64,000 bases of DNA from a virus: IMG/VR virus record IMGVR_UViG_3300045988_183796; one strand, written 5' to 3'. Under the pieces are notes generated by a model. It was not told where the DNA came from and did no database searches. It saw nothing but the letters and a program-made list of their open reading frames with translations. The position numbers and the translations under genes are program-made. Shown here one piece after another: positions 1-50,389 of this stretch. Numbering within the stretch: position 1 is the first letter of the stretch; the number at the start of each line of letters is the position of its first letter.

Positions 1-1611
1 GTTGTAGTCACTGACCCGAAAGGCGAAATTCACAACGATATGCGTAAACTTTTGGAGTCCCGTGGCTATAAGGTCAAGGTCTTTAACCTTATCAATCTGG
101 ACCTTTCTAATGCGTGGGATTGTGTTCAGGAAATCTATGACCCGATTACTGGTAACATTGATGACCAGCGTGTGATTACCTTTTGTAAGACCGTTATTGC
201 TAACACGGGAGGCGGTGCAAACAGTAAGGGTGACCCGTTCTGGGAAAGCTCGGAAGAAAACTTGTTCCGCGTTGCTGTTTCCTATTGTGCGTATATCCGT
301 GAAAAGAGCTTGATTGAGATTTATGAGCGCCGTGCAAAAGAGCTTTTGACTCAGCTGCCGTATATCACTCAGGAAGATGAGCAATCTCTGATTGAGATTG
401 TAAAGAATCCGGAATCCGCAATGGTGGATAGACGCCGGGTTGTCGAATACCTTGCTCATTCGTTCTACGGTGATGAGGAAGGTGACAGGAAGCTTTCTGA
501 ATGGGAAGAAGATGCTCCGACCTGTAACATCTCTGATATCTATGACGCTCTGCTTCACAACGACCTGGATAAATGGGAAGCAAACTTCAAGTATGTACCG
601 CTGAGCCATCCGGCCGCATCTGCATGGGCAGTGTTTAAGGGTATGGGTGAGCGCGTACAGCCCAACATTGTTGGCGGTTTGAATACTCGACTCCAGCTGT
701 TCATGACCTACAAGGTTCGCCGCGTTATCAGTAACGATGACATTCGCCTGGCAAATCTTGGCGCGGAAAAAACCGCATTGTTCCTTATCATTTCCGATGA
801 TAACGCTTCTATGCAGCTGCTTTCCTCTCTGCTTTTGAGCTTCCTGTTCAAAGACCTGAAAGAAGCTTTCGATGCAGTTGGTGGTGAAGGACGCATCCCG
901 GTCAACGTTGTTGCGGACGAGTTGGCAAACACTGGCGTCTGGCCGAACTTTGAAAAGACGATTGCTACTGCACGTTCTCGTAAGATTGCAGTTTCCCTCA
1001 TTTTGCAGAGTTTGCCGCAGTTGACTCAGTTGTACGGCGAGGAAAACGCCGAAACTATCATCGGCTGCTGCAATACGATGCTGGTTCTGGGCTGTAATGA
1101 TAAGTATACAGCCGAATACATTTCCGATAAGAGCGGCATTGTTACGATTCGCGCCAAGAGCGTCAGCGATACTCGTGCTTCCTCTGCCGGAAATCGCGGC
1201 GTGATGCAAGGGTATTCGCTCAGTGAAGGCGACGGCAAACGCAATCTTGTGAACCCTGATGAAGTTCAGCATTTGGACAAGGAACAGATTTTGATTATGA
1301 CGAATGGCCAGAACATGTTGGAAGCCAAGCGCTTCGGATTTATTCATCATCCTCTGTTCAATGACCCGCATTTTGTCCCCACCAAATGGGCAGAACTTCC
1401 GAAAACCGCAGACCTTTATCCCAATGCCCGGAAACACGACGCAATTGAATCCCGTGAATCGTCGTTCGGTGATATCCAGCGCCAGAAAGAAATCAATACA
1501 GATATTACGCAGAAGCGTTCCGAAGAGCGCATGAAACCGCGTTTGTCCAAGAAAGATTTGCTGGCTACGGATGAACCTGCTCCCAAAAAGAAAAACGCAT
1601 TCAAAAAATAA
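1..1611 (+). CDS. Type IV secretion coupling protein (TraG/VirD4/TraD family), 5'-partial
   Basis: The frame is open from nt 1 (VVVTDPKGEI... upstream of the first Met). The TraG-D_C-like segment ...VADELANTGVWPNFEKTIATARSRKIAVSLILQSLPQLTQLYGEEN... matches the conserved C-terminal region of T4SS coupling ATPases. Confidence 0.8.
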   Translation, partial: VVVTDPKGEIHNDMRKLLESRGYKVKVFNLINLDLSNAWDCVQEIYDPITGNIDDQRVITFCKTVIANTGGGANSKGDPFWESSEENLFRVAVSYCAYIREKSLIEIYERRAKELLTQLPYITQEDEQSLIEIVKNPESAMVDRRRVVEYLAHSFYGDEEGDRKLSEWEEDAPTCNISDIYDALLHNDLDKWEANFKYVPLSHPAASAWAVFKGMGERVQPNIVGGLNTRLQLFMTYKVRRVISNDDIRLANLGAEKTALFLIISDDNASMQLLSSLLLSFLFKDLKEAFDAVGGEGRIPVNVVADELANTGVWPNFEKTIATARSRKIAVSLILQSLPQLTQLYGEENAETIIGCCNTMLVLGCNDKYTAEYISDKSGIVTIRAKSVSDTRASSAGNRGVMQGYSLSEGDGKRNLVNPDEVQHLDKEQILIMTNGQNMLEAKRFGFIHHPLFNDPHFVPTKWAELPKTADLYPNARKHDAIESRESSFGDIQRQKEINTDITQKRSEERMKPRLSKKDLLATDEPAPKKKNAFKK

Positions 1612-3447: not shown

Positions 3448-4781
3448 GTAAAGAAGAGCAGAAGCCAAATATTTATCAAATCCCCAAAAACTCGTTTGAT
3501 ACCGGGTATGTGTTGAACGGACAATTCAAAACTCGAAACTTCGTTGAAGGTATCATCCTGGCACTACCGTTCTTGGGAATTTTCATTTATGGATGGCATG
3601 ATTTGGGATGGGATGTACAAAGTACCGTGGCCTATTGCGCAATACTCTGTGCTGCTGCTTTCCTTGGTGCAGCTCATGGTGTTGGCGGCGATAGCTTGTT
3701 TGAGTTTATTCAACGTGTTATCCGTTTCCGGCAAAGTCGCAGAATCTCAAAATACAATCCTCGTATCAAAACCGAACTTGAACCGGAATATCTGATTCAT
3801 GACGGGCGGATGCTCCCGAAAGACAAGCTCAAGCAAATGCTTGGCACTGTAAAGGGAAAAGTTCTTGGTGAAGAGAACGGTCCTATCAGTTCCGACATTA
3901 CAGATGAAGAGCTCAAGGTCTTCTACGATGATGACTATGGGTTCCTAGAAAAACCGGATGCCCTCAAATCTAAAGCAGAACTCCGTGCTGAAGCAAAACA
4001 GCGTGCGAAAGAAGAGAAGGAATACATTAACTCTTTGCCCCGTTCTGAACGCAAGGCTGCCAGAGAAGAAATCAAGCGTAAGCGTGAACAGGAAGAGGCT
4101 GAGAAGAAGGCAAAAGAAGCAGAGCGCGAACGCATTATTAACGAAGCTATTAAGAAGCGTCTGGATAAAGCCGAGCGTGTTAAGACCGCACAGTATTACG
4201 AGAAGTTCATGGACCCCGACAATGAGCAGGAAAATGACAAGCCGGAAGAGAATAACGCTGAACTGAATCCTCAGGCTGTAGAGTTCAAGCCCGTCACTAT
4301 AGGGCCGAGCAATAATGCGGTTCAGGATGATGTCGATATCTTTGACAGTGAAGAAAGCATCGACACCGATGAAGTAGAAGCGAATGTGGAAGCAGATGCG
4401 GATACAGAGCTGTTTGAGGACGGCACTGATACCGATATCCAAGTCCCGCAGATTGATGATGTAGTCTTTGACGATGAAGCGGAAGTACTTGACGTCGATG
4501 AGGACTTGGATGACTTATCGGTTGATATCCAGGATACTCAGTCTGCACAGCCCGCAAAGCAGGGCAGGGGACAAGTCGTGAACAGCGATGACGATGTCAG
4601 CTTGGATGATGTAGACCTTTTCGATGACAGCACGGTCAGCCGCACAGAGGAAAGACCTCAGAACGTCAAAACCTCTGGAAAGACGATGGGCTCGCAAAAG
4701 CAGCCGCAAACCACACAGAACAACAGCGATATTGATTATATGTCCTTGAATGACATTTCTATCTTTGATAGTGAGGAGTGA
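3444..4781 (+). CDS. PrgI/VirB3-like (TcpE-like) conjugal membrane protein with a long acidic/charged low-complexity C-terminal extension
   Basis: ATG 3444 after AAGGGGGAAGAAGC. Two N-terminal TM helices (ILALPFLGIFIYGW..., AYCAILCAAAFLGAAHG). It sits immediately upstream of VirB4, as in Tn916 orf17/orf16. The tail is rich in E/K/D repeats. Confidence 0.6.
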   Translation: MSKEEQKPNIYQIPKNSFDTGYVLNGQFKTRNFVEGIILALPFLGIFIYGWHDLGWDVQSTVAYCAILCAAAFLGAAHGVGGDSLFEFIQRVIRFRQSRRISKYNPRIKTELEPEYLIHDGRMLPKDKLKQMLGTVKGKVLGEENGPISSDITDEELKVFYDDDYGFLEKPDALKSKAELRAEAKQRAKEEKEYINSLPRSERKAAREEIKRKREQEEAEKKAKEAERERIINEAIKKRLDKAERVKTAQYYEKFMDPDNEQENDKPEENNAELNPQAVEFKPVTIGPSNNAVQDDVDIFDSEESIDTDEVEANVEADADTELFEDGTDTDIQVPQIDDVVFDDEAEVLDVDEDLDDLSVDIQDTQSAQPAKQGRGQVVNSDDDVSLDDVDLFDDSTVSRTEERPQNVKTSGKTMGSQKQPQTTQNNSDIDYMSLNDISIFDSEE

Positions 4782-4786
4782 AGCCT

Positions 4787-7447
4787 ATGTTTCGATTCAA
4801 AAATGGCGGAGAAATCCCCCACGGTGTTGTGGAACAGAGTATCGGTACAATCCCGCTGACGAAAAAGGAACGCGATGAAATCGCCAAAGAAGAGCGGCGG
4901 CGGATGAATCAAAAGCTGGAAGCTCAGAATGAGCGCTATCAAATCATTCGAAGCACACAGCGTATCATCCCTATTGAGGATATTTACGGCGGCATTGTTG
5001 TGACAAAGGACCACCGATATATCAAAATCATGGAATTTCGCCCTATCAACTTTGCCTATATGGACGCGGAAACTCAAAACCGTATTATTTCGCTTTTCTA
5101 TCAAACGTTCAAAGCAACTCCCTGCAATATCCAGTTCAAAACCTTTTCTCGTAAAGCTGATGTCGAGAATTCAATCGCGACCGTGACGGACTATTACAAA
5201 GCAGAAAAGAATCCGAGTCGTAAGCGAATGCTGCAGGCATACATCGGATTGCTTCGTAAGACGGCTTTGTCCGTTGGTATTACTCGTCGCTTCTTTGTGG
5301 TCGTAGAATTCCAGCGCACTATTAGTAACGATGGTTCTAAATTTGAAATGGTTGTGGCCGACTTGAATGCCGTTGCGGCAAACGTCCGCTCTCACATGGA
5401 ACAGTGTGGTAATATCTTTATTCCTGCACTTGGTAACCCTGACGGAAACGAGGACGCAGGTCTACACCAGCTTTTTTACCAGCTCTTGAACCGTAGAAAA
5501 AGCGAGACCATCACGTTCAAGCACCACATGGACCCCATTGTGGACCGTTATTTTGAAGCCGAAAAGAATGGCGTTAAGACGTCTTTGCAGGCAACGGAAC
5601 TGATTGCTCCAGACTGGATTGACTTTACGCATCACGATTACATTGTCATTGATGGCAAGTTTTATACTTTCGCTTACATTCCCTCGAACGGGTTCAGCCA
5701 GCGTGTCTATGCGGGCTGGGTGGCTACGTTCGTAAATGCTGGTGAAGGCATTGACGTCGATATGTTCTTTGAGCACATGTCCCGTGAAGCTGTCTTCAAT
5801 AAAATCAGTACACAGCTTCGTCTGAGCCGTGCAAACGCCATGGACAGTCACGATACTGACTCTGACTATCAGGCGCGTATGGAAAAAATTTCGTCCAGTG
5901 AATATATGCTGCGCGGCCTTTCCAGCGGCGAAGAGTTCTATTACCTGTCAATGCTCATCACTATCGTGGCAGATACAAAGAAGGAACTCGATTATAAGTT
6001 CGATGCTTTGAAAAAGCGTATCGAAGGTCAGAGCATGAAGATTCGCCGTGCGGATTTCATGATGGAAGAATGCTTCGATTCCTGCCTGCTTCCTCTTGCG
6101 AAAATCAATAAGGAGCTGGCAAAGAAATCTCATCGCAATCTTCTGACTTCGGGTGTTGCATCCTGCTATCCGTTCATCTCGTTTGAAATGCAGGACCCGG
6201 GCGGCGTTATGGTCGGTACAAACCATGTCAACAACTCTCTGGTCACCATCGATATGTTTGATACCCGTGCTCATGCAAACGCAAACGCCGTTATCCTGGG
6301 CTCTTCCGGCTACGGCAAGACTTTCACCGCACAACTGTTCGCACTACGCTTGTCTGAGATGGACACGCAAGTGTTTATCATCTCTCCTCTGAAAGGTTTG
6401 GAGGACTACGGCGGCGGTTGTAAGGCAGTCAATGGTCAGTTCGTCTCCATGGACCCCTCTTCGGACAACAACATCAACATCATGGACATTCGCGCTCCTG
6501 ACGATGAGGACGCAAAACTGCTGGATGATTATGAGGCTTCTGGCTCCTTCTTGACCAAAAAGATTCACACGATTCTTTCGTTCCTGCACCTGGTTGTTCG
6601 CAATATGACGCAGGAAGAAGAGCAGCTGATTGACGGCTGCCTGTATGCGACATACGCAAAGTTCGGCATTACCCGTGATAACAACTCTATCTACGATAAA
6701 GATGGCAACTATAAGGTGATGCCGCTGTTGGAAGATTTGCAGGAAGAAATGAGAAAAAAACCTGAACTGCATACCGTCTGCAACATCTTGAATCCGCTAA
6801 TTAACGGTTCTATGGCTTGCTTCAATCACCACACCAACGTGGACCTTGACTCCAAGTACATCGTATTTGACTTCAATGGCATGAAAGGCTCTTTGCTTAC
6901 CATGTCTATGTTCGTGGTTCTGGACTTTGTCTGGACGAAAATCAAAGAGGACCGTACACAGCGCAAAGCCGTATTTATTGACGAATGCTGGAAATTGATT
7001 GGTACTGACTCCAACGAGCAGGCAGCTGAAGACGTTGTTGAAATCTTCCGTACGATTCGTGCTTATGGCGGTTCCGCTTTTGCTATGACTCAGGATATTT
7101 CTCAGTTCTACGAATACAAGGGCGGCAAATACGGCAAGGCAATTATTGGTAACGCCGATACCAAAATCATCATGCACCTGATTCCGTCCGAAGCAAAAGC
7201 CCTTCAGGAAGCCATTCAGCTGACCAGCGTTGAGATGGAAGCGGTATCCAGCCTGCCGCGTGGTCAAGGTCTGGTTTGCTCTGCATCCGCAAAACTGTTC
7301 GTTGATTTTGTGGCCGATGACTATGAAGCCAAGGAAATCACAACCGATGCTAAGTCCTTCTACGAACGCCGCAAGGCTCTGGAAAAGAAAAAGCGGGAAG
7401 AAGAAGAGAAGGCGGCGGAAAATACCGTCATCGATGTTGAAATGTGA
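4787..7447 (+). CDS. VirB4/TrsE/TcpF-like T4SS ATPase
   Basis: Walker A ILGSSGYGKTF and Walker B VFIDECW. About 887 aa. RBS GAGGAG about 8 nt upstream of ATG 4787. Overlaps the stop of the upstream gene. Confidence 0.85.
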   Translation: MFRFKNGGEIPHGVVEQSIGTIPLTKKERDEIAKEERRRMNQKLEAQNERYQIIRSTQRIIPIEDIYGGIVVTKDHRYIKIMEFRPINFAYMDAETQNRIISLFYQTFKATPCNIQFKTFSRKADVENSIATVTDYYKAEKNPSRKRMLQAYIGLLRKTALSVGITRRFFVVVEFQRTISNDGSKFEMVVADLNAVAANVRSHMEQCGNIFIPALGNPDGNEDAGLHQLFYQLLNRRKSETITFKHHMDPIVDRYFEAEKNGVKTSLQATELIAPDWIDFTHHDYIVIDGKFYTFAYIPSNGFSQRVYAGWVATFVNAGEGIDVDMFFEHMSREAVFNKISTQLRLSRANAMDSHDTDSDYQARMEKISSSEYMLRGLSSGEEFYYLSMLITIVADTKKELDYKFDALKKRIEGQSMKIRRADFMMEECFDSCLLPLAKINKELAKKSHRNLLTSGVASCYPFISFEMQDPGGVMVGTNHVNNSLVTIDMFDTRAHANANAVILGSSGYGKTFTAQLFALRLSEMDTQVFIISPLKGLEDYGGGCKAVNGQFVSMDPSSDNNINIMDIRAPDDEDAKLLDDYEASGSFLTKKIHTILSFLHLVVRNMTQEEEQLIDGCLYATYAKFGITRDNNSIYDKDGNYKVMPLLEDLQEEMRKKPELHTVCNILNPLINGSMACFNHHTNVDLDSKYIVFDFNGMKGSLLTMSMFVVLDFVWTKIKEDRTQRKAVFIDECWKLIGTDSNEQAAEDVVEIFRTIRAYGGSAFAMTQDISQFYEYKGGKYGKAIIGNADTKIIMHLIPSEAKALQEAIQLTSVEMEAVSSLPRGQGLVCSASAKLFVDFVADDYEAKEITTDAKSFYERRKALEKKKREEEEKAAENTVIDVEM

Positions 7448-12411: not shown

Positions 12412-13605
12412 ATGAGCACTTGCGTTTGTGTTCTCAGCAACAGTGGTGAACGCTTAATGCCTACCTTCCGTCTTGGCAAGGTACGCCGACTCTTGAAAGA
12501 CGGAAAAGCAAAAATCGTTAAGCACCATCCATTTACTATCCAGTTACTGTATGACAGTAAAACAAACACGCAGCCCATCGAAATCTGCGAGGATGTGGGC
12601 TACAACTACATCGGCATCAGTGTAAAAAGTCAATCTCACGAGTATGTATCTGCGCAGTATGATACATTACAGGATGAGAAAGCCTGCCACGACAGTTGTC
12701 GTAAGTTGCGCCGAACCCGCAGAAATAGACTGCGCTACCGTAAACCGCGCTTCGATAACCGCAAGCGCGGCGAAGGTTGGCTTGCTCCTTCTTTGAAGCA
12801 TAAGAAAGAACTCAATGTCAACGTTGTCAAGATGTATTGTGCAGTAATGCCCATTACTCATGCAACGGTTGAGGTTGGTTCTTTTGATACGATGCTTGTA
12901 AAAGCAATTCAGGAGGGAAAAGCCATTCCTGAGGGAGCAGACTACCAGAAAGGTCCCCGCTACAACTTGGCAACTTTGCGTGAGGCAGTGTTCTACCGTG
13001 ATAATTACACCTGCCAAGTTTGTGGACGCAAAATCGCGGATGGTGCCATTTTACATATGCACCACATGTTCTACTGGAAAGGAAGACACGGCTACCAGCT
13101 TGATGAGTTGGTTACAGCGTGTGAAAAATGCCACACGCCAGCAAATCATCAAAAAGGCGGCAAGCTCTTCGGTTTTGGCGAAGATAAAGAATTTGCCAAT
13201 CTTTCAGGTGCAGCGTTTATGAACGCTGTTTGCTGGCAGATAGTAGATGCACTGCACGCCACATACGGTAAGGAATTTGTGACCATCACTTATGGTGCGA
13301 TGACAAAGGAAAAGCGAATCATTCTTGGCATAGAGAAAACCCACAACAACGATGCGTATGCAATGGGAGATTATCATCCGGTACATCGTTGCGTGTTTAG
13401 GCATTACCAAAAACGACGCAGAAACAATCGTGTGCTGGAAAAATTCTACGATGCCACTTATATCGACACCCGCACCGGTAACAAAGCAAAAGGTAAAGAA
13501 CTATTTAACGGCAGAATTAGCCGTAATCACAAAAAGAATTCTGAAGACCTGCACAAGTACCGCAGCAAAAAGGTATCGAAGGGCCGTCGCTCTATAAGAA
13601 GGTAG
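12412..13605 (+). CDS. iscB: IscB (IS200/605 OMEGA RNA-guided HNH/RuvC nuclease)
   Basis: N-terminal PLMP-type motif (SGERLMPTFRLGKVRRLLKDGKAKIVKHHPFTIQL). RuvC-I EDVGYNYIGISV. Arg-rich bridge helix RKLRRTRRNRLRYRKPRFDNR. RuvC-II ATVEVGSFD. HNH YTCQVCGRK...HMHH...ACEKCH. RuvC-III THNNDAYAM. No TnpA nearby. Confidence 0.8.
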   Translation: MSTCVCVLSNSGERLMPTFRLGKVRRLLKDGKAKIVKHHPFTIQLLYDSKTNTQPIEICEDVGYNYIGISVKSQSHEYVSAQYDTLQDEKACHDSCRKLRRTRRNRLRYRKPRFDNRKRGEGWLAPSLKHKKELNVNVVKMYCAVMPITHATVEVGSFDTMLVKAIQEGKAIPEGADYQKGPRYNLATLREAVFYRDNYTCQVCGRKIADGAILHMHHMFYWKGRHGYQLDELVTACEKCHTPANHQKGGKLFGFGEDKEFANLSGAAFMNAVCWQIVDALHATYGKEFVTITYGAMTKEKRIILGIEKTHNNDAYAMGDYHPVHRCVFRHYQKRRRNNRVLEKFYDATYIDTRTGNKAKGKELFNGRISRNHKKNSEDLHKYRSKKVSKGRRSIRR

Positions 13606-22902: not shown

Positions 22903-23449
22903 TAAATACCGAGAGCAAACCTGCTGCTTTGTCGGGCACAAAGATATTCCGCCAGGAGAACAGCTTAAAATATTAGTCAGGGTAGAGCATCGGCTCATTC
23001 CACTCATTCAGCAGGGGGCCACCTATTTTGGCATCGGCGGTTCCTTAGGCTTCGATACCCTCATGGCAGACATGTTAATTTCCTTAAAAGCTGCGCATCC
23101 ACGGATTCGGATTATTGAGGTTTTGCCATTTGAGGGATACCGTTCTAAATGGAGCTTGGAACAGCAGCGGCACGCAGAGAAGATAGACAAACAGGTGGAT
23201 AAGATTGTCTATGCGGTGAAAGAGCCAAGCAGGGGAGTATATCTTTTAAGAGACCGGCATTTAGTGGATTGTTCTGCCTATTGCATCTCCTATTGTACTA
23301 GAAATACTGGAGGCACAGCATATACGGTAAAATACGCTCTGGAACATGGCGTAACGGTGTATAACGCTTCCAGTTTCGATGTGAGCGCCTTGCTTCAGGC
23401 TCAGCCGCTTGGGAAGAACGAACAGGTAGTGTCTTCGCACAAAATATGA
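22895..23449 (+). CDS. DUF1273/SLOG (YpsA-like) protein
   Basis: TCCFVGHKDIP signature of the YpsA/DUF1273 family. Overlaps the upstream stop. Confidence 0.7.
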   Translation: MNNKYREQTCCFVGHKDIPPGEQLKILVRVEHRLIPLIQQGATYFGIGGSLGFDTLMADMLISLKAAHPRIRIIEVLPFEGYRSKWSLEQQRHAEKIDKQVDKIVYAVKEPSRGVYLLRDRHLVDCSAYCISYCTRNTGGTAYTVKYALEHGVTVYNASSFDVSALLQAQPLGKNEQVVSSHKI

Positions 23450-23790
23450 GGGAGATTTCCTGGCGTTTGGAGAAATACCCATAGGACTTTGAGCTTTGCT
23501 GCACAAAAACAAGCCTCCGCTCTTTGGCGGGGGCTCTTCTTGTATTCTCAAAAACGTTGAATTTAATTTCACTGAATTCCGATTCAGCATTATTTGGCGT
23601 GGCTCAGCTTGGCCCGGCAGCACGATACCATGGCGGCCGAACACAATGATTCTCCAGAACGGAATTCTCGACATTCGGTGCGAATCGTATATAATCTAAA
23701 TAATAAAACAGTATAGGAATATAGCTAAGCCGCCAAGCGAGTGAAATCGTTTGGTGGCTTTTCTTTTTGCTACGGAAAAGTAGATATTGT

Positions 23791-23875
23791 ACTTGTCATG
23801 AGCTTGTTGCATACTTGCTACGAACTTGCTAAAAACTTGCTAAGCACTTGCTACGCTTTACCTCGAAGCAAGTTC
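23791..23875. repeat. Iteron-like array: about five direct repeats of ACTTGCTA at 11-bp spacing plus one inverted copy
   Basis: atacttgctacg / aacttgctaaa / aacttgctaag / cacttgctacg, then gaagcaagtt. Read directly from the sequence. Confidence 0.65.
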
Positions 23876-24373
23876 ATTTTTTTGCGCGAAAGAATATCGG
23901 ATAAGTGACGCTTCCTACTCGTATGACCGAGAGAAAACATGCAAAGACTCTACCATTCTGGTAGGGCTTTTTTGCTGCCCAAAAAGTTGGAAAAATGTCG
24001 CAAGCGAGCCGCTGAAACCTCAGAATTTTGTCGCAGCCTTTCCGAATATGAGATGTATCTCACAAAAGCGAAATGCGCTGCTTCGTATCTGTGGTGAGAC
24101 AATCGGAACAGGCGAATAGCAAAATCTCAGCTGCCGCAAATGCTGTCAAGTTCAAATCACAACTCCCAAAAGTCTCGTTTGGGAAAGCCTGCATTAAAAG
24201 TTTCGTTCTGGGAAATGCAGAGGGGAAAGGAAAATGTCGAAGCATATATGCACTGATTTTCTTCTTGCTATTTGTGCAATCCGCTCAAATTGGCGATAAA
24301 TATTCCCAAAATAAATAAGTCAAAGTGCTTTTGGTGTATAATGGCTCTGACAAACAGAAAAAAGGAGAACACT

Positions 24374-25456
24374 ATGAAAAAGGTTGTATCATTAGCACTT
24401 TCGACTTTGCTCGTCCTCTCGTTGGCTGCCTGCGGCAAGGCGAATAGTTCCGCTGCAACAGCCGCAAGTGAATCCAAGTCAAGTGCTTCGTCAAATAGCA
24501 CTTCCAATAGCACGCAAGATTACAGCCCTGACGGGATTAAAGTAGGAGAGACATATACTACAGAAGACGGCAAAACATATGAAAGGGTGTGGAACGGCAC
24601 AGGCAGCGATTTACCTACGCCGTCCCCCGAACCCAAAATTACATACGATAATGATTTCCAGGCACAGACACTTGTTGATAATGAAGAATGCACCATTATC
24701 TTGCAGAGCGTCGGTTACGATGATGATTACGGCTATTATTGGAAGCTTTATTTCAAGAATAAGACATCAGATAAAAAACTCGGTTACTCGTTTGATGACT
24801 GCACATTGAATGGCGTGGGTGCGAGCCTTTGGCTTACGAGTGTTGAACCTGGTCAAGAGGAAACGGAGATTCATCATTGGGAAAGTTCCGGGCTTAAAAT
24901 TTATAACATCAATCCGCAGGATATCAATACGGTAAGTTTTTATCTCGATGTCTATAACGAATTAGATTATGATGTTATCCCACGGCATGACTTTGTTGAT
25001 GACGATTTCGTGGTTTATCCAAAAGGGGAAGAAAACGCAACCGAGCCAAAGCATGAAACCCAACCCACAGACCTCGTACTGGCCGACAATGACGCTTGCA
25101 CTCTGATGATTTGTGGATTTGACCCCGATGGCCTGCACGGTTATACGACCAAAGCTTACATAGAAAACAAAACAGATAAAGAAATCATGCTTGCCTTTAG
25201 AAGTGGAGGTTCCATAAATGGCTTTGAGTGCTTCCCTGAAACAGATACAATGGGAATTGATGCGCACACTAATGCCTATGTAGACATCTACTATTACGAT
25301 TATTTAGATACTTATGAGGCCAACGGTAAAGACCCCACCTCTATCACCGAAATGGTGATGCCAATCGTTATAAACAATTTCAATACTCGGGACATCTATG
25401 TAGATGAGACTTTCACTATTAACCCTCAGACAAATTCCGTGACAACATCGAAATAA
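24374..25456 (+). CDS. Lipoprotein, paralog 1 of a tandem pair
   Basis: MKKVVSLALSTLLVLSLAACG lipobox. Extended -10 TGTATAAT upstream. About 45% identity to the next gene. Confidence 0.7.
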   Translation: MKKVVSLALSTLLVLSLAACGKANSSAATAASESKSSASSNSTSNSTQDYSPDGIKVGETYTTEDGKTYERVWNGTGSDLPTPSPEPKITYDNDFQAQTLVDNEECTIILQSVGYDDDYGYYWKLYFKNKTSDKKLGYSFDDCTLNGVGASLWLTSVEPGQEETEIHHWESSGLKIYNINPQDINTVSFYLDVYNELDYDVIPRHDFVDDDFVVYPKGEENATEPKHETQPTDLVLADNDACTLMICGFDPDGLHGYTTKAYIENKTDKEIMLAFRSGGSINGFECFPETDTMGIDAHTNAYVDIYYYDYLDTYEANGKDPTSITEMVMPIVINNFNTRDIYVDETFTINPQTNSVTTSK

Positions 25457-25613
25457 TTTGACGCCCTCCTGCGATTAAAATTATTAACTTTCCCGGGCAT
25501 CGTTTGCGACTTTGTAAGTAAAGGTTTCGTTCTGGGAAAACACGGTGGAAAAGTAAAATGTCGAAGCGCTTTTGATGTATAATAGCCTTATACAAAGAAA
25601 AAAGGAGAAAATC

Positions 25614-26636
25614 ATGAAAAAGGTTGTATCATTAGCACTTTCGGCTTTGCTTGTACTTTCCCTGGCCGCCTGTAGCAGCTCTAACACTACCAGTACTGCT
25701 GCCAGCAGTGCAGCTACATCTGATGCTGCATCCTCCGAGGAAAGCACCAGCGACTCTTCAACGAGTACTGCAAGTAGTGCTGCCGATAATGCAACGGCTG
25801 AACCCGACATCCAGTTCGATGAGAGCTTCCAGCCACAGACGATTGCCGACAACGATACCTGTACCATCATCTTGCAGAACGTGGGTTATGATGACAGCTA
25901 TGGCTACTACTGGACCGTTGATTTCCAAAATAAAACGGATGACAAAACTCTTTGCGCTATCACAAGCAGCTCGTCCTTGAATGGAATCCCGGCAGATACC
26001 AGTTGGTTCCCGGAAATTGGACCAGGAGTGAAAACCACCGAGGTCGTTTCGTGGGATAAAGCAGGACTGGAAATCTATGGAGTGAAACCGCAAGACATCG
26101 ATACCGTCAAACTTCACATCGATGTCTATGATGAAGCAGAATGGGATGTGTCGAATCGTGATGACCCTGTCGATGATGACTTTGTGATTTATCCGAAAGG
26201 TGAAGAGAAAGCGACAGAACCAAAACACGAGATTCAGCCCACGGATATTGTGCTGTTCGACAATAATGCCTGCAGCATGGTCGTTTGCGGATTTTATTCT
26301 GATAGTTTCATGGGCTACACGGCAAAAGCCTACTATCAGAATAAGACAGATGACCGTATCGACATTATTCTGGATAAAGGCTCCATCAATGGCTTTGAGT
26401 GTACCCCGGGAGGAACAACATTGCTGGAACCACATTCTAATGCCTACGTGGATATCCGTTGGCAGGAATATGCCGAAACCTACGCAGAAAATGGCAATGA
26501 CCCAACATCCATCACAGAAATTGTAATGCCAGTTTTTGTGAGAAAAGACACAGGGAGCAATACGGTATACATTGACGCCACTTATTCCATTGACTCACAA
26601 GCAAGAACAGCAACGCCGATAGTGAATCCCCAATGA
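25614..26636 (+). CDS. Lipoprotein, paralog 2 of a tandem pair
   Basis: MKKVVSLALSALLVLSLAACS lipobox. Duplicated leader (tttcgttctgggaaa...aaaatgtcgaagc...tgtataat) as in paralog 1. Confidence 0.7.
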   Translation: MKKVVSLALSALLVLSLAACSSSNTTSTAASSAATSDAASSEESTSDSSTSTASSAADNATAEPDIQFDESFQPQTIADNDTCTIILQNVGYDDSYGYYWTVDFQNKTDDKTLCAITSSSSLNGIPADTSWFPEIGPGVKTTEVVSWDKAGLEIYGVKPQDIDTVKLHIDVYDEAEWDVSNRDDPVDDDFVIYPKGEEKATEPKHEIQPTDIVLFDNNACSMVVCGFYSDSFMGYTAKAYYQNKTDDRIDIILDKGSINGFECTPGGTTLLEPHSNAYVDIRWQEYAETYAENGNDPTSITEIVMPVFVRKDTGSNTVYIDATYSIDSQARTATPIVNPQ

Positions 26637-26746
26637 TAGCCGCATAATTTTCCAAAGCCAAATAAATTCTTTGGAAAACAGCAAAACTTTTCTGAGTTCA
26701 AAAAACTTTTAGTATTTTTGGGAAAAGTTTTCTGGAACGGAAAAAA

Positions 26747-26780
26747 TTAAAGCGCTCACCATCTTCGGTGGGCGCTTTCG
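26747..26780. terminator. Bidirectional terminator between convergent genes
   Basis: agcgctcaccatcttcggtgggcgct with T-runs on both strands. Confidence 0.55.
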
Positions 26781-26783
26781 TGT

Positions 26784-28313
26784 TTATTCTTCAGTTTTCT
26801 TTTTCAGCCACTGCCTTCTAACGAACGGTGTTACATAGGTTTCATCACTCTTCAGCTCATAGCCATAGCTTTCAGCTATCATGGTAGCACGTTCACTCGC
26901 TTTCTGCCCGGCAGGCAGGCGACGAATAAAACCATTGATGTTCTTGGACGAAGCATCATACTTGGACTTGTCGAACACCCGCAGCGGCTCGTCGTCATCA
27001 TTGCCTTTCTTGCGATAATCGCGGGGCTTTCCGCCAATCATCAGACAACGAATCCTGAATGGAGCATCCGCGTGTGTCACAAACGAAGACCGGAACGACG
27101 CATCAGTGGGCAGGACATCCGGCAAATCACAGGCGAGAGAAGTGTACAGCCAGAGAATCAGATTCGTGACGCTGTCAACCAGCTCTGGAAATTGAGCTCG
27201 GTCAGTCAAAATATAAAACCACTCGGTGCTTGTGTTATAGTATCCGGCCAGGTCACCGAACTTGGTTACGATTTTATACAGACACACAATCTCGTTGTCG
27301 CGGCAAGTCTCTTTCAGCTTAATTTCCTGTATCAGCTGGCAGGCATCAAACTGAAACAATGCACCGTTGGCGGGAAGAGTTCTGCGGCGATGGTGCAGCG
27401 TATCTTTCAAAAACTCTGTCGTATATTTGGGTGAGATGGGCTTTGGCCACCAGGACCACATGTTCGGAGTATTCTCAATCAGCGGCTTGTCCGGCAGCAT
27501 GTCCACGGTATACTCGTTCACATAGGTAGCCATCGAAAGGACTGTGTTCGTATACAGATGTGAGAGCAAAGCGAGGTTGTTGATGCTGTCGAAGTCGGCA
27601 ACGTCCTCATAACCATAACGCTTGTAGTACGAAAAGACCATATCCAGACGTCTATCTTCAGAAATCTGAGAATCGCATTTGTCGTATGGCCGATTGTTGA
27701 AAAGAGCATCACTATAATAGACAGGAACATCGGCGAGGGGATAGGGGTCCCGAATAATGATTGGCTCGTTCTCAGTTGAGATACCGACAATGTTGTTCAC
27801 AATATCGAATTCCTGAGGCTTGAGGTATTCGCTCCCCTGCATCAGCATATCGATTACCGCGTACAAGACAGAATCATTACGTTCCACAATTCCGTCAATG
27901 GTCAAACCTAAATGAACGCATTCCTGCGCATAAGCAATAGCCTTAAAATACAGAGCATAGTCCTTATTCTTCTTGATGGGCTTTGTGAGCTCCTGCAAGA
28001 ACCGATGATATCCCTTGATGAATTTATCAGAGTTCGCCATGGCGAGCTCTATCTGAGAGTTAACGGCCTCAATAAGAGGTTTGCACTCCTCAGCTCCACG
28101 GGCCAGGTGAAAGAGGAAAGTAGATGCTTTCCCAAAATCCATGTCATGCAATGTCGTCGCAACCTGGCAAGCGCTGGACAGGGTTCTTCTCTGAAATACC
28201 CAGATAGACTCGCCTTTGCTCCGATACTTCTTATCCCATACCGGTACGTATTTATCGACTAGGGCATTACCGAAATCTTCCTGCACTGCCAAAACACCAT
28301 TTTCGTTCTGCAC
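26784..28313 (-). CDS. Large hypothetical protein (509 aa), downstream partner of the HD-domain gene
   Basis: Long ORF with coding-like composition and no motif I recognise. Lies 73 nt downstream of the HD gene on the same strand. Confidence 0.6.
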   Translation of the reverse strand: MQNENGVLAVQEDFGNALVDKYVPVWDKKYRSKGESIWVFQRRTLSSACQVATTLHDMDFGKASTFLFHLARGAEECKPLIEAVNSQIELAMANSDKFIKGYHRFLQELTKPIKKNKDYALYFKAIAYAQECVHLGLTIDGIVERNDSVLYAVIDMLMQGSEYLKPQEFDIVNNIVGISTENEPIIIRDPYPLADVPVYYSDALFNNRPYDKCDSQISEDRRLDMVFSYYKRYGYEDVADFDSINNLALLSHLYTNTVLSMATYVNEYTVDMLPDKPLIENTPNMWSWWPKPISPKYTTEFLKDTLHHRRRTLPANGALFQFDACQLIQEIKLKETCRDNEIVCLYKIVTKFGDLAGYYNTSTEWFYILTDRAQFPELVDSVTNLILWLYTSLACDLPDVLPTDASFRSSFVTHADAPFRIRCLMIGGKPRDYRKKGNDDDEPLRVFDKSKYDASSKNINGFIRRLPAGQKASERATMIAESYGYELKSDETYVTPFVRRQWLKKKTEE

Positions 28314-28386
28314 AGTATCCTCCTCATAGTTTCAGCTGCCCTACACAGCTCTGCGCAGTGGGCAGTAGTTTGTGGGCCATCTCGTT

Positions 28387-29721
28387 TCAAAAATACTTGG
28401 GGTCCACGGCCCGCATCCCGAACCGCACACGGTCCAGGGCATCTGCGTCTTTCAGAATCGTATACAGCAGCCACACCCGTTCTTTGTCCCGGATATTGGA
28501 TGCTTTGAGGTCTGCAAGAGCCTTGCGGTCATCCAAGCAATGATACTCGATGAGGAAAGCAGTTGCCGGATTGCAGTCGGAGTCTGCGTCATAATAAATG
28601 TCCCTGGACTTTGCTCCGTGACTGTCATCGACATCATCATTCGTCCGCCCAATATCATGATAAAGAATCGCATCACATAGCTGGTGGGATTCTTTTTTTG
28701 TTAAGGCAATGCCCTGAACCTGAACCAAAAGCAGCGCATCAAAGAGAACTCGCAGCGTATGCTCGGCGTCGTGCTCCTCGTCATCAATCCGGCCATAATC
28801 ATCGTACAGTGCGGAGATACGGCTCCGGTAGCACTGATAGAGCGAATAAAACGCTGGGATTTTGTCTGCCAGAGCGTCGATACCGTAAAGTGTATCAATC
28901 TTGACTTCATTTATAGCAGCTGGTGAAATGAGAACTTCTTTTTCTTCATCACGCGAAAAGTATTCGATGATATCACTTTTGTTGACGTGAGCAGTTATGA
29001 TTCTGCTGTTATCAACACTTGGAATACGACAGGCAAAGAAACAGGCTGCCTTGTAGCTTGTGGTCCAGGAGAAAGATTTCTCGTATGGAGTTGACTTACT
29101 CCCTTCCCCACGATAGATGGTCACAATATCCGGCAGGCTGGATAGCTTCTTTTCAGTGTCCTGCTTTTGCTTCTGAGACTTTCCAGAAAAGACTTTCTGA
29201 AGGTTATCCTCTTTGAGAGCCGAGAACCCAAAATCACTGGTACGATAGAAGTCCAGAAAAAGCGCGTATAGATTCTCACCCGGACTGGACAACTCAATGT
29301 ATTTAGAAAGAACCGATACACGCAGGCTGTCTTCCAGGGAAAAGAGGTAGCTGCGAATGAAGGGGGCGTTTCCCGATGAGATTTTCTCGGCCCTATCCAG
29401 AACTCTCTGCTGAAACTTTTCGTCCGATTCGCCGTTCACAGCCAAGCGTTTGTCTCCATAAATGTTCAGAGAAAGAACAATAGGAATTATCGGATTGTTA
29501 AGCTCACAATAATATAGCGATGCCAGCATATTGTGCGTAGCATAGATTCTGGCGACAGGAAGCCTCGGATACTTCTTAGCAAATTCGTTGGCCGTTATGC
29601 CGACACTGTAGCCTTCTTTGTAGTACCGTTCGATATCTGCGCTTGTTTTCACTGCTGTAAGGGGAAGCATCGTGTCGAGATTTGCTTGATTTATTTGTAT
29701 CAGGATATCTCCGATTGTCAT
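28387..29721 (-). CDS. HD-domain phosphohydrolase-like protein with an N-terminal domain of unknown function
   Basis: C-terminal H...HD...D motifs (EHTLRVLF, YHDIGR, LKDADALDRV). Start chosen at MTIGDI because the extended -10 TGGTATAAT lies inside the longer ORF. Confidence 0.65.
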   Translation of the reverse strand: MTIGDILIQINQANLDTMLPLTAVKTSADIERYYKEGYSVGITANEFAKKYPRLPVARIYATHNMLASLYYCELNNPIIPIVLSLNIYGDKRLAVNGESDEKFQQRVLDRAEKISSGNAPFIRSYLFSLEDSLRVSVLSKYIELSSPGENLYALFLDFYRTSDFGFSALKEDNLQKVFSGKSQKQKQDTEKKLSSLPDIVTIYRGEGSKSTPYEKSFSWTTSYKAACFFACRIPSVDNSRIITAHVNKSDIIEYFSRDEEKEVLISPAAINEVKIDTLYGIDALADKIPAFYSLYQCYRSRISALYDDYGRIDDEEHDAEHTLRVLFDALLLVQVQGIALTKKESHQLCDAILYHDIGRTNDDVDDSHGAKSRDIYYDADSDCNPATAFLIEYHCLDDRKALADLKASNIRDKERVWLLYTILKDADALDRVRFGMRAVDPKYF

Positions 29722-29892
29722 AATTCTTTTCTTTCTACATTTCTTTACAAATGCATTATACCATATTTTGGTGATTACAGGGCTAAATCGCAAAATCGTT
29801 CATGAATGCTTTACTTTTGCAATGTGTTGGCGTTAACGACCTGCGCGTCCAGATACGCAACACTTTCTAAGGGGTCGCGTGAGGCTCGAACG

Positions 29893-30300
29893 TCAGATTC
29901 TCATTAGAAGTTCTGTCGGAGTAAATGCGACTACTTTGCTTCTTGTGAAATCACGAACGTTTCTCGTAATAATATAATCGGCATGAATTTGTTCTGCAGT
30001 AGCACTTTGAACTGCATCTTCAAAATCCTTCCAGTTCATTTCAACAGCTTTTGAAAGAATAGAAGAACTGAAATCAGCAAATTCAAAAATCAAACACAGT
30101 TTGTGATATACTTCTTCGATTTTATCGGAAGTGAGTTCTTTTCGGAGAATATACATAATATTTGCGAAGGATAGCGTGGAAATATAGCCTTTTGCTTGCT
30201 CTGTTTCGCATAGCTTCCATATCATCGCGGATTCCTTCACAAAGTTTTCTCGGTTTTGCAATACATCCAATACGATGTTAGCGTCAATCAGTAAGGTCAT
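29893..30300 (-). CDS. PIN-domain toxin (VapC-like)
   Basis: MTLLIDANIVLD..., with acidic residues in PIN positions. Overlaps the antitoxin gene by 17 nt. Confidence 0.8.
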   Translation of the reverse strand: MTLLIDANIVLDVLQNRENFVKESAMIWKLCETEQAKGYISTLSFANIMYILRKELTSDKIEEVYHKLCLIFEFADFSSSILSKAVEMNWKDFEDAVQSATAEQIHADYIITRNVRDFTRSKVVAFTPTELLMRI

Positions 30301-30535
30301 ACTTTTCTCTCAGCCTTTCCTCTTTCACTTCGTCAAGGTTGTAATTTCCTTTAAGGATGCCGGTGAGGGAATCTGTGAGATAGGAAACGGCAGCATCTTT
30401 GGGAATGAAACGACCAACTTCACGGCCGTTTTTTGTTACGATTATTTCCTGACCAGACATAACGAGATTCAAGTATCTTCCAAAATTATTCTGCATTTCA
30501 GTTGCGGTTGCAGTAGCAGTAATCATAACTGACAC
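30284..30535 (-). CDS. Phd/YefM-family antitoxin
   Basis: About 83 aa with the typical Phd fold sequence (QNNFGRYLNLVMSGQEIIVTKNGREV). Confidence 0.8.
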   Translation of the reverse strand: MSVMITATATATEMQNNFGRYLNLVMSGQEIIVTKNGREVGRFIPKDAAVSYLTDSLTGILKGNYNLDEVKEERLREKYDLTD

Positions 30536-30539
30536 CTCC

Positions 30540-30585
30540 TTTTAGCTAATTATATTATACACAAAGTTAGCTAATTTTGCAACTT
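30540..30585 (-). promoter_or_regulatory. Toxin-antitoxin promoter with twin TTAGCTAA palindromic operators flanking the -10
   Basis: Reverse complement reads TTGCAA-N17-TATAAT. The palindromes TTAGCTAA lie at about 30542-30549 and 30567-30574. Confidence 0.6.
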
Positions 30586-30615
30586 GAAAATATTTGGAAC
30601 CAAGCAAATTTGCTC

Positions 30616-30643
30616 TTGCGCTGCTGTGCGAACTTCGTACAAT
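30616..30643 (+). promoter_or_regulatory. Regulon promoter (TTGCGC-tgctGTGCGAACttcg-TACAAT) driving a short terminated transcript
   Basis: Member of the conserved-spacer promoter family. Followed by an intrinsic terminator at 30747-30785. Confidence 0.55.
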
Positions 30644-30746
30644 AAGAATTGTACAAGAGAAACGGCAAGAGACATTTGTAGTGATTGTAGTTGGTCGCCA
30701 CGAATCGATACCGTGTCTGCTTGCGCATAATTACCTCTTTTCGAAG

Positions 30747-30785
30747 CCCACAGGTCATTCTCTCACCTGTGGGTTTTGTTTATTG
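30747..30785 (+). terminator. Intrinsic terminator (perfect 9-bp stem plus T-run)
   Basis: cccacaggtcattctctcacctgtggg ttttgtttatt. Confidence 0.7.
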
Positions 30786-30810
30786 CGGAATCGTGCGAAT
30801 TGCAGATAAT
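30783..30810 (+). promoter_or_regulatory. Regulon promoter upstream of omega-RNA-like copy 2
   Basis: TTGCGG-aatcGTGCGAATtgca-GATAAT. Confidence 0.55.
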
Positions 30811-30879
30811 TAAAGACAAAGCGATTGTGAGATGGGGCGATACCGATGCAGTAGGGATGAGAATCTTAGCAGCTAAAAG

Positions 30880-31198
30880 AGTCAACAACCCCGCCTAAAC
30901 CGGTTCGCCGGTTATAGACGGGGCTTGCGGGGCAACCTGTAAGCCCAGTTGATTAGCCTAAGCCCATTGCTCCGGCAGTGGGGAAAACTACGTTGTGTAC
31001 TAATAATATAGGCACCTTATCCATGCTCCACAAGTGGTGAGCTCTGCAGGCGTTTCGTTAAACATCTCCGAGGGGAGGAGAAGTGCGAGCGTCATGTCGA
31101 AAGGCTAAAACAGTGCATAACATTGGCGAAGTGGACCACAGGACGCAAGTCCTGACTTATAGTTTTATTACTATTTTACGAATGGAGAAACAAAAATT
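30880..31198 (+). ncRNA. Omega-RNA/HEARO-like scaffold copy 2 (no iscB), abutting the flotillin start codon
   Basis: Shares the 5' ~75-nt and 3' ~95-nt blocks with copy 1. The middle is divergent. Shows compensatory base changes (caggac-gcaa-gtcctg versus cagggc-gcaa-gccctg). Confidence 0.5.
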
Positions 31199-32842
31199 AT
31201 GGTATATGTGATTGGAATTGTAGCAGCCCTGATTATTCTCTTTGGATTTCTCTGCTACAAGAAAGCTCCGCCCACGGAGGCTATCGTTGTAACTGGCTTT
31301 GGCCTGTCTAAGCCTAAAGTGGTTTGCGGAAAGGGTACATTTGTTCTGCCCGTTCTTCAACGGGCTGACCGACTGAATATGCGCCTTTTGAAAATCGATG
31401 TCAAGACTCCTGAAACAGGTGTTAAGACGAAGAACGGCGTAAGTCTCTGGATTGACTCTGTTGTCACGATTCAAGTCTACAGCGAAAACTCTACCGTTCT
31501 GGATGAAGAAGTGAAGGCATCCGGTCTGAAAGACGCCAAGGCGTACATCATGTCCCGCCAGCAGGCAGCCATCTCGAACTTTCTCGGCATGAACGAGCAG
31601 GGCATCAATGAGAAAGTTAATGACGTTCTGCAGGGCAATTTGCGTGAGATTGTCTCTGACATGACCGTTGACCAAATTCTGACGAACCGCAAGCAGATGG
31701 CTGTGAGCGTTATCGAGAATGCTCGCCCCGACCTTGCTAAGATGGGACTTGAGGTCGTGACTTTTAATGTCCAGGACATCAGGGATGCAGTGGATGTTCA
31801 AGGCCACAATCACGGCGTTATCGAAGCTATCGGCATCGAACAGGAAGAGCTCGTAAAGAAACAGGCTGAAATTGCCCGTGCTCAGGCTGCCCGTGATGTA
31901 GCCTGCGCGAAGGCCGATGCTGAGATGGCTGCAAATGCCAAAGAAGTTGAAGCGCAGACTGCGATTGCAAAACGCAACAATGAATTGCAGCTCGCCAAGG
32001 CAAAGCTGAAAGCTGAAGCTGATAAAGCTGCGGCTGACGCAGATGCTGCCGGTCAGATTCAGATGAATCTCCGCGCCAAAGAAATCAAAGAAGCGGAAGC
32101 GGATGCTGAAATTGCCAAGCAGAAGAAAATGGTAGACCTTGCCGCACAGGAAGCCGAGGTCCAACAACGCAAACTGGATGCGGAAGTCCGCAAACAGGCA
32201 GATGCTGACCTGTACCGCCGCCAGAAAGAGGCAGAAGCCAAGAAATATGAGGCGGAACGTGCAGCTGAGGCACAGAAGTTCTCCAAGCAGCAGGAAGCAG
32301 AAGGCATCGAGCTTGTCGGTAAGGCAGAAGCTGAAGCGATTCGTCAGAAAGGCTTGGCTGAAGCGGAAGCTATGAAACAGAAAGCAGAGGCATATAAGCA
32401 GTATAACGATGCGGCTGTGGCTGAAATGCTCATCAAGGTTCTTCCGGACATTGCCAAGAGCGTGGCTCAGCCTTTGTCCAGCATTGATAAGGTTTCTATC
32501 ATTGGCGGTGATGCCTCCGGCGTATCCGGCGTTTCCGGGAACGTTCCTATCCTGATGGCTCAAACCATGCAGACGGTGAAAGAAGCGACCGGCATTGACA
32601 TGGGCGAAATTGTCCGTGCCAACAGCATCCAGGCAAAGACAGACCGCAACATCAACATTATGACTCAATGTGAACAGCCTGAGAATAACAAAGAGAAAGG
32701 AGGTGCCAAGGCAATGGAACGCGTAGAAGGCGGCTATCTGATTCATGAGAAGAGTCTCAACGGTGAGGAAGTCACTCATTTTCGACCGGATGTGACCGAA
32801 GAAGAGAAGGCTATCATGAAAGACAAAAAAGCCAAAGATTAA
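31199..32842 (+). CDS. Flotillin-like SPFH/Band-7 protein
   Basis: N-terminal TM helix, then an SPFH domain (VVTGFGLSKPKVVCGKGTFVLPVLQRADRLNMR...) and a long EA/K-rich coiled-coil. The antisense 581-aa ORF was rejected. Confidence 0.8.
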   Translation: MVYVIGIVAALIILFGFLCYKKAPPTEAIVVTGFGLSKPKVVCGKGTFVLPVLQRADRLNMRLLKIDVKTPETGVKTKNGVSLWIDSVVTIQVYSENSTVLDEEVKASGLKDAKAYIMSRQQAAISNFLGMNEQGINEKVNDVLQGNLREIVSDMTVDQILTNRKQMAVSVIENARPDLAKMGLEVVTFNVQDIRDAVDVQGHNHGVIEAIGIEQEELVKKQAEIARAQAARDVACAKADAEMAANAKEVEAQTAIAKRNNELQLAKAKLKAEADKAAADADAAGQIQMNLRAKEIKEAEADAEIAKQKKMVDLAAQEAEVQQRKLDAEVRKQADADLYRRQKEAEAKKYEAERAAEAQKFSKQQEAEGIELVGKAEAEAIRQKGLAEAEAMKQKAEAYKQYNDAAVAEMLIKVLPDIAKSVAQPLSSIDKVSIIGGDASGVSGVSGNVPILMAQTMQTVKEATGIDMGEIVRANSIQAKTDRNINIMTQCEQPENNKEKGGAKAMERVEGGYLIHEKSLNGEEVTHFRPDVTEEEKAIMKDKKAKD

Positions 32843-32992: not shown

Positions 32993-33046
32993 TAAAAACA
33001 AAAGATGCTTTGTATCAAATCGATTGAAACCGAAGAGGTGAAGTTA

Positions 33047-33850: not shown

Positions 33851-33851
33851 C

Positions 33852-35546: not shown

Positions 35547-35665
35547 CTCAAAAGCGCGGTTTTGTCCGCGCAGCTGCTCCAAAAGACAGCCTCCACGCGG
35601 CGAGCAGCGGGCAACGGGAGACAGTCCCGGCAAATTGTCTTTGAGACGGAAGGAAGAAGTGCCCT

Positions 35666-50152: not shown

Positions 50153-50389
50153 GGTGTACTCCTTTCAAATATGTCATTAGCTGTACAATGCTGTCATCTT
50201 CTGTAATTATAATAGCACATCCCGCACCAAAAAGCAAGCATGAATTTACAAAAAATGACAAGAAAATACACAAGATGACATATTTGGGCAAAGCAGTTGA
50301 TTTCCGAGTCTTTGCTACCCCGTGATGGAACATGCCCTGTGCGTCTTGTCTATGCCACAGTTTTGCCACGATTTTGCCATGATTTTGCC

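Follow-up and report, generated by a model that had tools for sequence, protein, structure and literature searches.

The Intergenic Gap and Its Repeat Array

Between a YpsA-like gene and a lipoprotein gene, the 64-kb stretch of DNA analysed here (called the window throughout) contains a composite 924-bp gap. In it are three terminators and two promoters, one from a deleted operon and one for the lipoprotein gene downstream (Table 1). Read from left to right, the YpsA terminator is followed by the orphan promoter, the operon terminator, the array module, and the third terminator, after which approximately 350 bp of DNA lead to the lipoprotein gene's own extended -10 promoter. An earlier note on this DNA had called the gap the largest noncoding stretch, which is true when the gene calls of related contigs are used (924 bp vs 875 bp for the gap with the HEARO RNA) but not when the ranking is of stretches without any ORF of 100 aa or more, in which case it comes third. 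The hairpin and T-run that the note had placed to the right of the repeats are present and fold like a true terminator (-14.6 kcal/mol, z -4.1).

The orphan promoter and the terminator next to the array are best understood from longer variants of the same element. An operon of ~6.3 kb lies precisely between the two in three contigs (L213, 2594-8935; L220, 10846-17222; and L211), and two more (L013 and L017) appear to share this long, operon-bearing form. The operon codes for a metallophosphatase, proteins of 53 and 331 aa, an Eco57I-like protein, and a T5orf172/ResIII protein. It is missing from the window, where ATAAA microhomology is found at the junction. Since the longer variants hold the operon between promoter and terminator, the pair in the window is a deletion scar, and a small RNA running from one to the other (23668-23770) was rejected as a candidate for the same reason. 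The operon site is thus a presence/absence polymorphism for a defence-like cassette. In one metagenome variant (L015, 6822-7961), an IS605-family TnpB element has inserted at approximately window position 23555, 5' of the orphan promoter, and the array remains with the right-hand (lipoprotein) side, unchanged by the insertion.

The small ORFs of the gap (52, 81, 55, and 21 aa) have no family matches and are not kept in the other lineage of the element. The 21-aa ORF is hydrophobic (MSKHICTDFLLAICAIRSNWR) with a strong GGGGAAAGGAAA RBS, and a minus-strand terminator-like hairpin is located just 5' of it, a layout that is reminiscent of type I toxin-antitoxin loci and is not conserved in the G2 lineage. 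Neither the gathering threshold nor a cutoff of E up to 10 gave an Rfam match at the array, and the window contains no tRNAs.

The array consists of six units in one register (23791-23853), each made of an 8-bp core and a 3-bp spacer. Four of the units are exact in-phase copies of ACTTGCTA with a period of 11 bp, and TRF called a period-11 array over them; CTTG recurs six times in phase because two decayed units precede the exact ones. Of the five repeats at 11-bp phasing described in the earlier note, the phasing therefore stands and the count gives way to four exact plus two degenerate copies. The inverted copy that the note had seen after the direct repeats is where it was said to be: GAAGCAAGTT occupies 23865-23874 (8-bp core 23866-23873), its minus strand is one mismatch from the core, and it is positioned 20 bp, centre to centre, from the last direct unit. 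With box 1 on the left and the T-run plus GCGYGAAAGAAT on the right, these parts make up a module of 120 bp. Box 1 reads AAAAGTAGACATT in most relatives. Unit positions 1-8 carry 1.2-2.0 bits of information, against 0.25-0.65 bits for positions 9-11. Across the window, ACTTGCTA has 6 exact copies vs 1.68 expected, a number that 0 of 100 shuffles reached, and in-phase TTGCYA arrays number 2 vs 0.07 per shuffle.

Table 1. Features of the window discussed in the text (in unit sequences, core in upper case and spacer in lower case)
Feature	Position	Strand	Sequence or remark
T4SS coupling protein gene	40..1611
VirB4-like ATPase gene	4778..7447
RRXRR+HNH (IscB-like) gene	12412..13605	+
YpsA terminator	23512..23535
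Promoter (context)	23668..23695	+	sigma-70-like, TCGACA-16-TATAAT; in longer variants drives the 6.3-kb operon
Strong terminator of deleted operon (context)	23727..23770	+	-24.6 kcal/mol; array starts just 3' of it
Whole module	23776..23895		120 bp
Box 1	23776..23788	+	13 bp, AAAAGTAGATATT; directly 5' of array, one copy in window
Decayed in-phase pair	23791..23809	+	ACTTGTCA + GCTTGTTG
Unit 1	23791 (start)		ACTTGTCAtga; decayed, core ACTTGTCA
Unit 2	23802 (start)		GCTTGTTGcat; decayed, core GCTTGTTG
Four exact ACTTGCTA units	23813..23853	+	intervening spacers cga, aaa, agc
Units 3-6	23813, 23824, 23835, 23846 (starts)		ACTTGCTAcga, ACTTGCTAaaa, ACTTGCTAagc, ACTTGCTAcgc; exact cores
Inverted copy	23865..23875	-	GAAGCAAGTTC on + strand, ACTTGCTT on - strand
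Right-hand block	23877..23895	+	T7 run then GCGCGAAAGAAT; kept between both lineages
ATAAGTG stretch	23904..23914		ATAAGTGACGC
Terminator-like hairpin + T-run (context)	23948..23973	+	not conserved in diverged lineage
Terminator-like hairpin	24185..24163	-	just 5' of 21-aa ORF
21-aa ORF	24234..24299	+	MSKHICTDFLLAICAIRSNWR
HEARO (IscB omega-RNA family) match	30881..31141	+	91 bits
HDV-like ribozyme	35573..35642	+	60 bits (gathering 44)
Second 11-bp array	50353..50389		ATGCCACAgtt, TTGCCACGatt, TTGCCATGatt, TTGCCTTG

A Hodor-Type Megaplasmid

The window belongs to a Rep_3 conjugative megaplasmid of the Hodor type and matches the G1 group, an assignment made because the Rep_3 gene with its 2.35-kb gap, ParA/ParB, and the GC content of 47% match the published group. 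Proteins of the window were matched exactly on human-gut metagenome contigs of 205-294 kb. Leftward of the T4SS coupling protein gene come the Rep_3 gene with its adjoining 2.35-kb noncoding region, then ParA, ParB, and SSB, and the VirB4-like ATPase gene is followed by a long same-strand run of genes with several anti-defence-type domains. The earlier note had stated that no Rep or Par gene is adjacent to the repeats; among the Pfam-scanned ORFs none was found anywhere in the window. Hodors were described in 2026 and occur in thousands of human gut metagenomes, with no cultured host and with cis-acting sites predicted from context (PMC12934698). Roughly 1,600 draft Hodor genomes exist, along with complete ones such as Hodor01, and the Hodor paper includes mapping of the PRJNA492158 data. 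The Hodor paper predicts the origin in the >2-kb gap adjoining Rep_3, puts a putative oriT beside an HD-type relaxase gene by genomic context alone, reports a ParM/ParR locus, and leaves iterons, centromeres, and repeats unmentioned (PMC12934698). Searches of PLSDB and INPHARED with the gap, with 25 kb of the window, and with the ParB protein gave no relative, and the only matches there for the Rep_3 protein were at 27% identity or less.

Several observations concern the cargo of the element. On one contig (L008), the lipoprotein gene directly precedes homologues of window genes 40299-43241, including an AcrVA2-like gene, and comparison with window positions ~25500-40000 indicates that plasmids nearly identical elsewhere differ in approximately 15 kb of cargo. 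The HEARO match is located 5' of a flotillin-like gene with no IscB gene adjoining, and the IscB-like gene has no Rfam HEARO match in the 726-bp gap 5' of it; related contigs have TnpB/IS605 insertions near these IscB-like/HEARO features. The HDV-like ribozyme, of the 'F. prausnitzii' family, lies just 3' of a VWA-domain gene and may hint at a host clade or a retroelement.

Conservation between Lineages

Close relatives are ~99% identical over the gap and for that reason carry little information. A diverged lineage (G2; L023 = L218), with contigs of 268-389 kb, genes at 65-73% DNA identity, and a Rep_3 protein that is 75% identical, was compared with the window. At ~70% identity, the sole noncoding DNA that aligns between the two is 23813-23898, within which no difference is seen in the cores, the inverted copy, or the right-hand block. 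The rest of the gap is unalignable. The spacers differ by lineage (cga/aaa/agc in the window vs cgg/aac in the diverged lineage). The order in the diverged lineage is three copies of AAAAGTAGACATT at a 21-bp period, three exact ACTTGCTA units, GAAGCAAGTT, T6, and GCGTGAAAGAAT. The exact copy number shifts in whole 11-bp units, three (L026) or four (L291, diverged lineage), and both numbers occur in each lineage. Such shifts keep the helical phase but break any frame, including that of an array-spanning ORF, and the array is therefore not coding. The distance from the inverted copy to the last direct unit is 19-20 bp in the G1 array and in G2 array B and 31 bp in G2 array A, or approximately two or three helical turns. 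The diverged lineage also has a second, decayed cluster of ~11 in-phase TTG units ~150 bp upstream, and this cluster has an inverted copy of its own at a distance of 31 bp.

The flanking genes are unrelated in the two lineages, a metallophosphatase gene and an 84-aa ORF in L023 taking the places of the YpsA-like and lipoprotein genes, which makes the module autonomous. Full arrays occur once per element in the DNA examined. Over the 17 kb examined, a G2 sublineage typified by L217 has no more than a decayed three-unit version that lacks the inverted copy, ~70 bp 5' of a gene, and the full array may therefore be dispensable. The earlier note had named the absence of the repeats from related elements as a reason to abandon its reading; the array was found in relatives, the ~70%-identical lineage included. 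A pattern search with the right-hand block matched only Hodor contigs that were already known, the copies returned by a metagenome scan were all G2-type, and a full-text search of the literature for the motif gave no relevant match.

This pattern of conservation bears directly on whether the array is a functionless tandem repeat produced by replication slippage. Copy number does vary in whole units, and perfect 11-mer tandems containing ACTTGCTA occur in unrelated genomes, both as slippage would have it. However, the unrelated arrays repeat the entire 11-mer, spacers included, whereas here the spacers differ and the cores are identical, and the module is the only intergenic DNA that the two lineages have kept, down to its nonrepeat parts (box 1, the inverted copy, and the right-hand block). 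Slippage with no function is a most improbable account of such a site. A separate proposal, that ACTTGCTA arrays outside Hodors are the sign of a widespread binding protein, was rejected. Those examined in viral contigs and GTDB species genomes proved to be perfect 11-mer tandems or chance-level matches, a 16-base pattern giving at least 13 matches per fixed spacing in this collection. Their neighbours (a serine recombinase, a terminase, and similar unrelated genes) share no protein with Hodors or, close relatives aside, with each other.

Replication and Partition

The earlier note read the repeats as a plasmid replication origin with iterons or as a partition centromere. In favour of an iteron-type origin, or of a Rep-titrating (handcuffing/incompatibility) iteron cluster, the run of direct repeats with an inverted partial copy behind it matches the classic Rep_3 layout of iterons plus operator, and in the diverged lineage three 21-bp-period repeats stand beside the 11-bp units, a pairing reminiscent of theta replicons of the pUCL287 type, in which repeats of 11 bp and 22 bp occur together. 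The position of the true origin speaks against this assignment. The Rep_3 gene lies ~8 kb upstream of the first base of the window, which puts it ~30 kb away from the repeats, no rep gene adjoins the array, and the 2.35-kb gap of Rep_3 holds ~20 copies of a different iteron, ACGWAAATAAYCTC, in both orientations (L072, 2076-4428, which is ~5.5-7.9 kb left of the window start; L198/L199, 7000-10000). None of these iterons is present in the gap of the array, and ACTTGCTA is at chance level near the Rep_3 origin region. The note had proposed looking for a DnaA box or an AT-rich unwinding element, and neither was found in the gap: a search of 23203-24672 that allowed up to one mismatch gave no DnaA box (TTATCCACA), and the minimum GC of the gap (~32-37%; 0.37-0.43 around the array in 60-bp windows) is no lower than that of other intergenic DNA. 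GC skew does not switch at the array, and the units are 11 bp long vs 17-22 bp for usual iterons.

Comparison of the lineages provided a further distinction. The G2 iteron has diverged (…TCGCGTTAATAATCTC…), which indicates that initiator and iteron specificity co-diverged, but the array cores did not change with them. The array is neither the vegetative origin nor a set of Rep_3 iterons, and a replication role of the kind proposed in the note is very improbable. The published assignment of the origin next to Rep_3 is compatible with the array, which is a separate element.

The partition reading calls for a closer look at the genes and repeats that would serve it. The parAB genes of the element are flanked by five to six ~30-bp repeats with internal dyad symmetry (GAAWTTnCACCAACAGG...GTTC; L198, 11683-12180 and 14899-14932), which are candidate parS sites. 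They are unrelated to the array, none is present in its gap, and their sequence is missing from the G2 lineage. In the product of the 160-aa gene that follows parB, two stretches look RHH-like by eye, a likeness that Pfam does not back. The stretch that runs from ~34 kb to the left of the window start to ~71 kb to its right yielded no actin-like (ParM) or ParR gene, and no Pfam match to the StbA, ParR, or RHH families was obtained among the array neighbours or the small ORFs of the gap, which are part of an element of ~350 kb. In the diverged lineage, a 565-aa coiled-coil/DUF2325 gene is located 1.7 kb 3' of the array and has no homologue in the window. Because the Rep iterons and the parAB repeats diverged and the cores did not, the binding protein would be either conserved or host-encoded, which is a mild argument against an incompatibility-determining centromere. 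Likewise, if the array were a centromere, identical cores would create incompatibility between the two lineages; the sharing fits better with a factor from the host or with a plasmid protein that is very conserved.

Transcription, RNA, and Transfer

Direct repeats at 11 bp are also the typical grammar of OmpR/PhoB-type regulators, and the array has this spacing. It could thus be an operator or upstream activating site for a response-regulator-type or other winged-helix factor, plasmid- or host-encoded, that acts in promoter control or as a roadblock. A second 11-bp array with a related core (TTGCCAYG x4, similar to the TTGCTA of the main array) sits in a promoter-like position 5' of an EcoRI-like methylase gene, the L217-type mini-array lies ~70 bp 5' of a gene start, and a minus-strand TACAAT hexamer resembling a -10 element (23792-23787) would put the exact units near -36, -47, -58, and -69. 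That hexamer reads TCCAAT in the diverged lineage, though, with the key A2 lost; the plus strand has no TANNNT -10 from the array to ~23945-23948; a promoter scan called none at the array; and over the ~120 kb of the element examined, no other operon has the motif upstream of it. We regard the operator reading as possible but unlikely. The second array lies between the methylase gene and a divergent 628-aa HTH_3 gene, and two terminator-like hairpins come directly after it, before the methylase RBS, an arrangement that may be an operator plus attenuator for the methylase.

If the module acted as RNA, the repeated ACUUGCUA with the complementary AGCAAGU and the U-run downstream could form a regulated terminator or a small RNA that sequesters an RNA-binding protein. 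A T6-7 run comes after the inverted copy in both lineages, in the same orientation as every flanking gene, and the loop would be CU-rich in both (ACCUC / CCUCACC). The hairpin of the inverted copy is weak, however, at -6.7 to -9.5 kcal/mol (z ~-2) vs -24.6 and -14.6 for the true flanking terminators. With its 7-bp stem and 13-14-nt loop, it is passed over by the terminator scan and departs from the stable GC-rich stem, 3-8-nt loop, and U-run of an intrinsic terminator. No promoter feeds the array, the sole upstream one belonging to the deleted operon with a strong terminator in between, and no Rfam family matches an RNA element here. G2 array A has kept the inverted copy with no T-run, and an inverted copy set at an integral number of turns is what DNA binding, rather than an RNA stem, would lead one to expect. 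An RNA-level role is accordingly quite improbable.

A role in conjugation was also weighed, with the array as a site for a relaxosome accessory protein or as the true oriT, at the start of an anti-defence-rich leading region. The window has the T4SS coupling protein and VirB4-like ATPase, and the long same-strand run downstream includes matches to AcrVA2-like, NADAR, orphan methylase, and Apyc1-like proteins. Origins of transfer commonly mix direct and inverted repeats, and MOBH-type oriTs are sometimes far from the relaxase gene. The ATAAGTG stretch to the right of the module bears what we take to be a loose resemblance to the MOBQ nick region ATAAGTGCGCC, but it is not kept in the diverged lineage, so the resemblance is probably due to chance. 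No strong hairpin of the nick-adjacent type is present, and the putative Hodor oriT has been published, from context, beside the HD-type relaxase gene (PMC12934698). A transfer site is therefore an answer to which we give little credence.

A Proposed Cooperative Protein-Binding Array

The array is real and conserved, an orphan candidate binding-site array on a newly described gut megaplasmid. Conservation of the core with a free spacer, the one-turn phase, an inverted unit at an integral number of turns, copies gained or lost unit by unit, and autonomy from the neighbouring genes all point to a cooperative protein-DNA array. Our preferred reading, at a probability of roughly 40%, is that the module is such an array of the StbA/ParR type and serves segregation and/or local control. 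A small sequence-specific protein would bind as dimers arrayed next to one another along a single helix face, with each of them reading the 8-bp core A-C-T-T-G-C-T-A, of which T-T-G is the most constrained part. The inverted copy two turns off might then close or nucleate the complex. Candidate binders would be the product of the 160-aa gene that follows parB, the ParR that partners ParM, and a tandem-HTH Mor-like protein of 199 aa (39760-40359). Positioning and segregation of the plasmid would be the most likely role, possibly together with local repression or insulation between cargo modules.

A related proposal is that the module is a tethering or positioning site for a host factor or for one very conserved plasmid protein, common to two megaplasmid lineages whose initiator-iteron and ParB-site specificities have diverged. 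Although decidedly unlikely in our estimation, such a site would be a segregation or anchoring handle independent of the plasmid's ParABS and ParM, which has not been described for Bacillota megaplasmids. Regardless of which protein might bind, a 120-bp site kept in two deeply diverged lineages is a handle with which to fish out a plasmid or host binding protein, and the module could be used for stability and incompatibility tests, for vector building, and for host tracing.

Comparison with Known Systems

The systems below are compared with the array on layout, and its membership in any named family is putative. The Rep_3 iterons with an inverted half-iteron operator (pSC101, pPS10, F, and R6K) share direct repeats, an inverted partial copy, and a Rep_3-using plasmid with the array. 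Unlike them, the array has units of half the usual length and no adjoining rep gene, DnaA box, or unwinding element, and the true iterons of the element differ from it in sequence and place. The single-protein partition site of pSK1 Par has several direct repeats plus one inverted repeat directly 5' of par; the array has the same grammar of direct repeats plus one inverted copy, but no Par-like HTH/coiled-coil gene adjoins it.

In the parC sites of R1, pB171, and pSK41, ParR binds cooperatively to repeats on one helix face, often in two clusters. The likeness lies in contiguous direct repeats of 10-11 bp: where parC calls for at least four of them at ~10-11 bp, the array has six in phase, four of which are exact. 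The difference lies in the setting. parC is immediately 5' of parMR and overlaps its promoter, whereas the array adjoins no partition gene, no promoter was called there, and no parM or parR was found in the ~-34 to +71 kb covered.

The closest described arrays are the StbA-bound stbDR/stbS of R388 (IncW), with the ParR-bound parC next. The stbDR unit is 9 bp, (C/T)TGCATCAT, with a 2-bp spacer in an 11-bp cycle, and R388 has stbDR arrays of 2, 3, 5, and 2x5 units in its maintenance/leading region (bioRxiv 10.1101/2022.04.29.490116). The two differ in that the core here is 8 bp with a 3-bp spacer rather than 9 + 2, in that the module includes an inverted copy and overlaps no promoter, and in that the element is a Bacillota-type megaplasmid in which no StbA homologue was found among the array neighbours or the ORFs of the gap. 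StbA-type arrays sit in the promoters that they repress, several to a plasmid, and here the DNA examined has one ACTTGCTA array per element, with no promoter at it. The first unit of the decayed G2 array (GATTGCATCAT; L218, 4071-4081) holds the exact stbDR consensus TTGCATCAT, which could be a coincidence, at a chance of ~2% with ~20 units. The features in common are TTGC in both cores, a place in the maintenance/leading part of a conjugative plasmid, contiguous direct units in arrays of 2-5 with a two-cluster layout in the diverged lineage, and a one-turn cycle of 11 bp in which a conserved core is followed by a short free spacer. An StbA-like site has a core and a short spacer in an 11-bp cycle in arrays of at least two, and the array answers to this description with 8 + 3 bp and four to six units.
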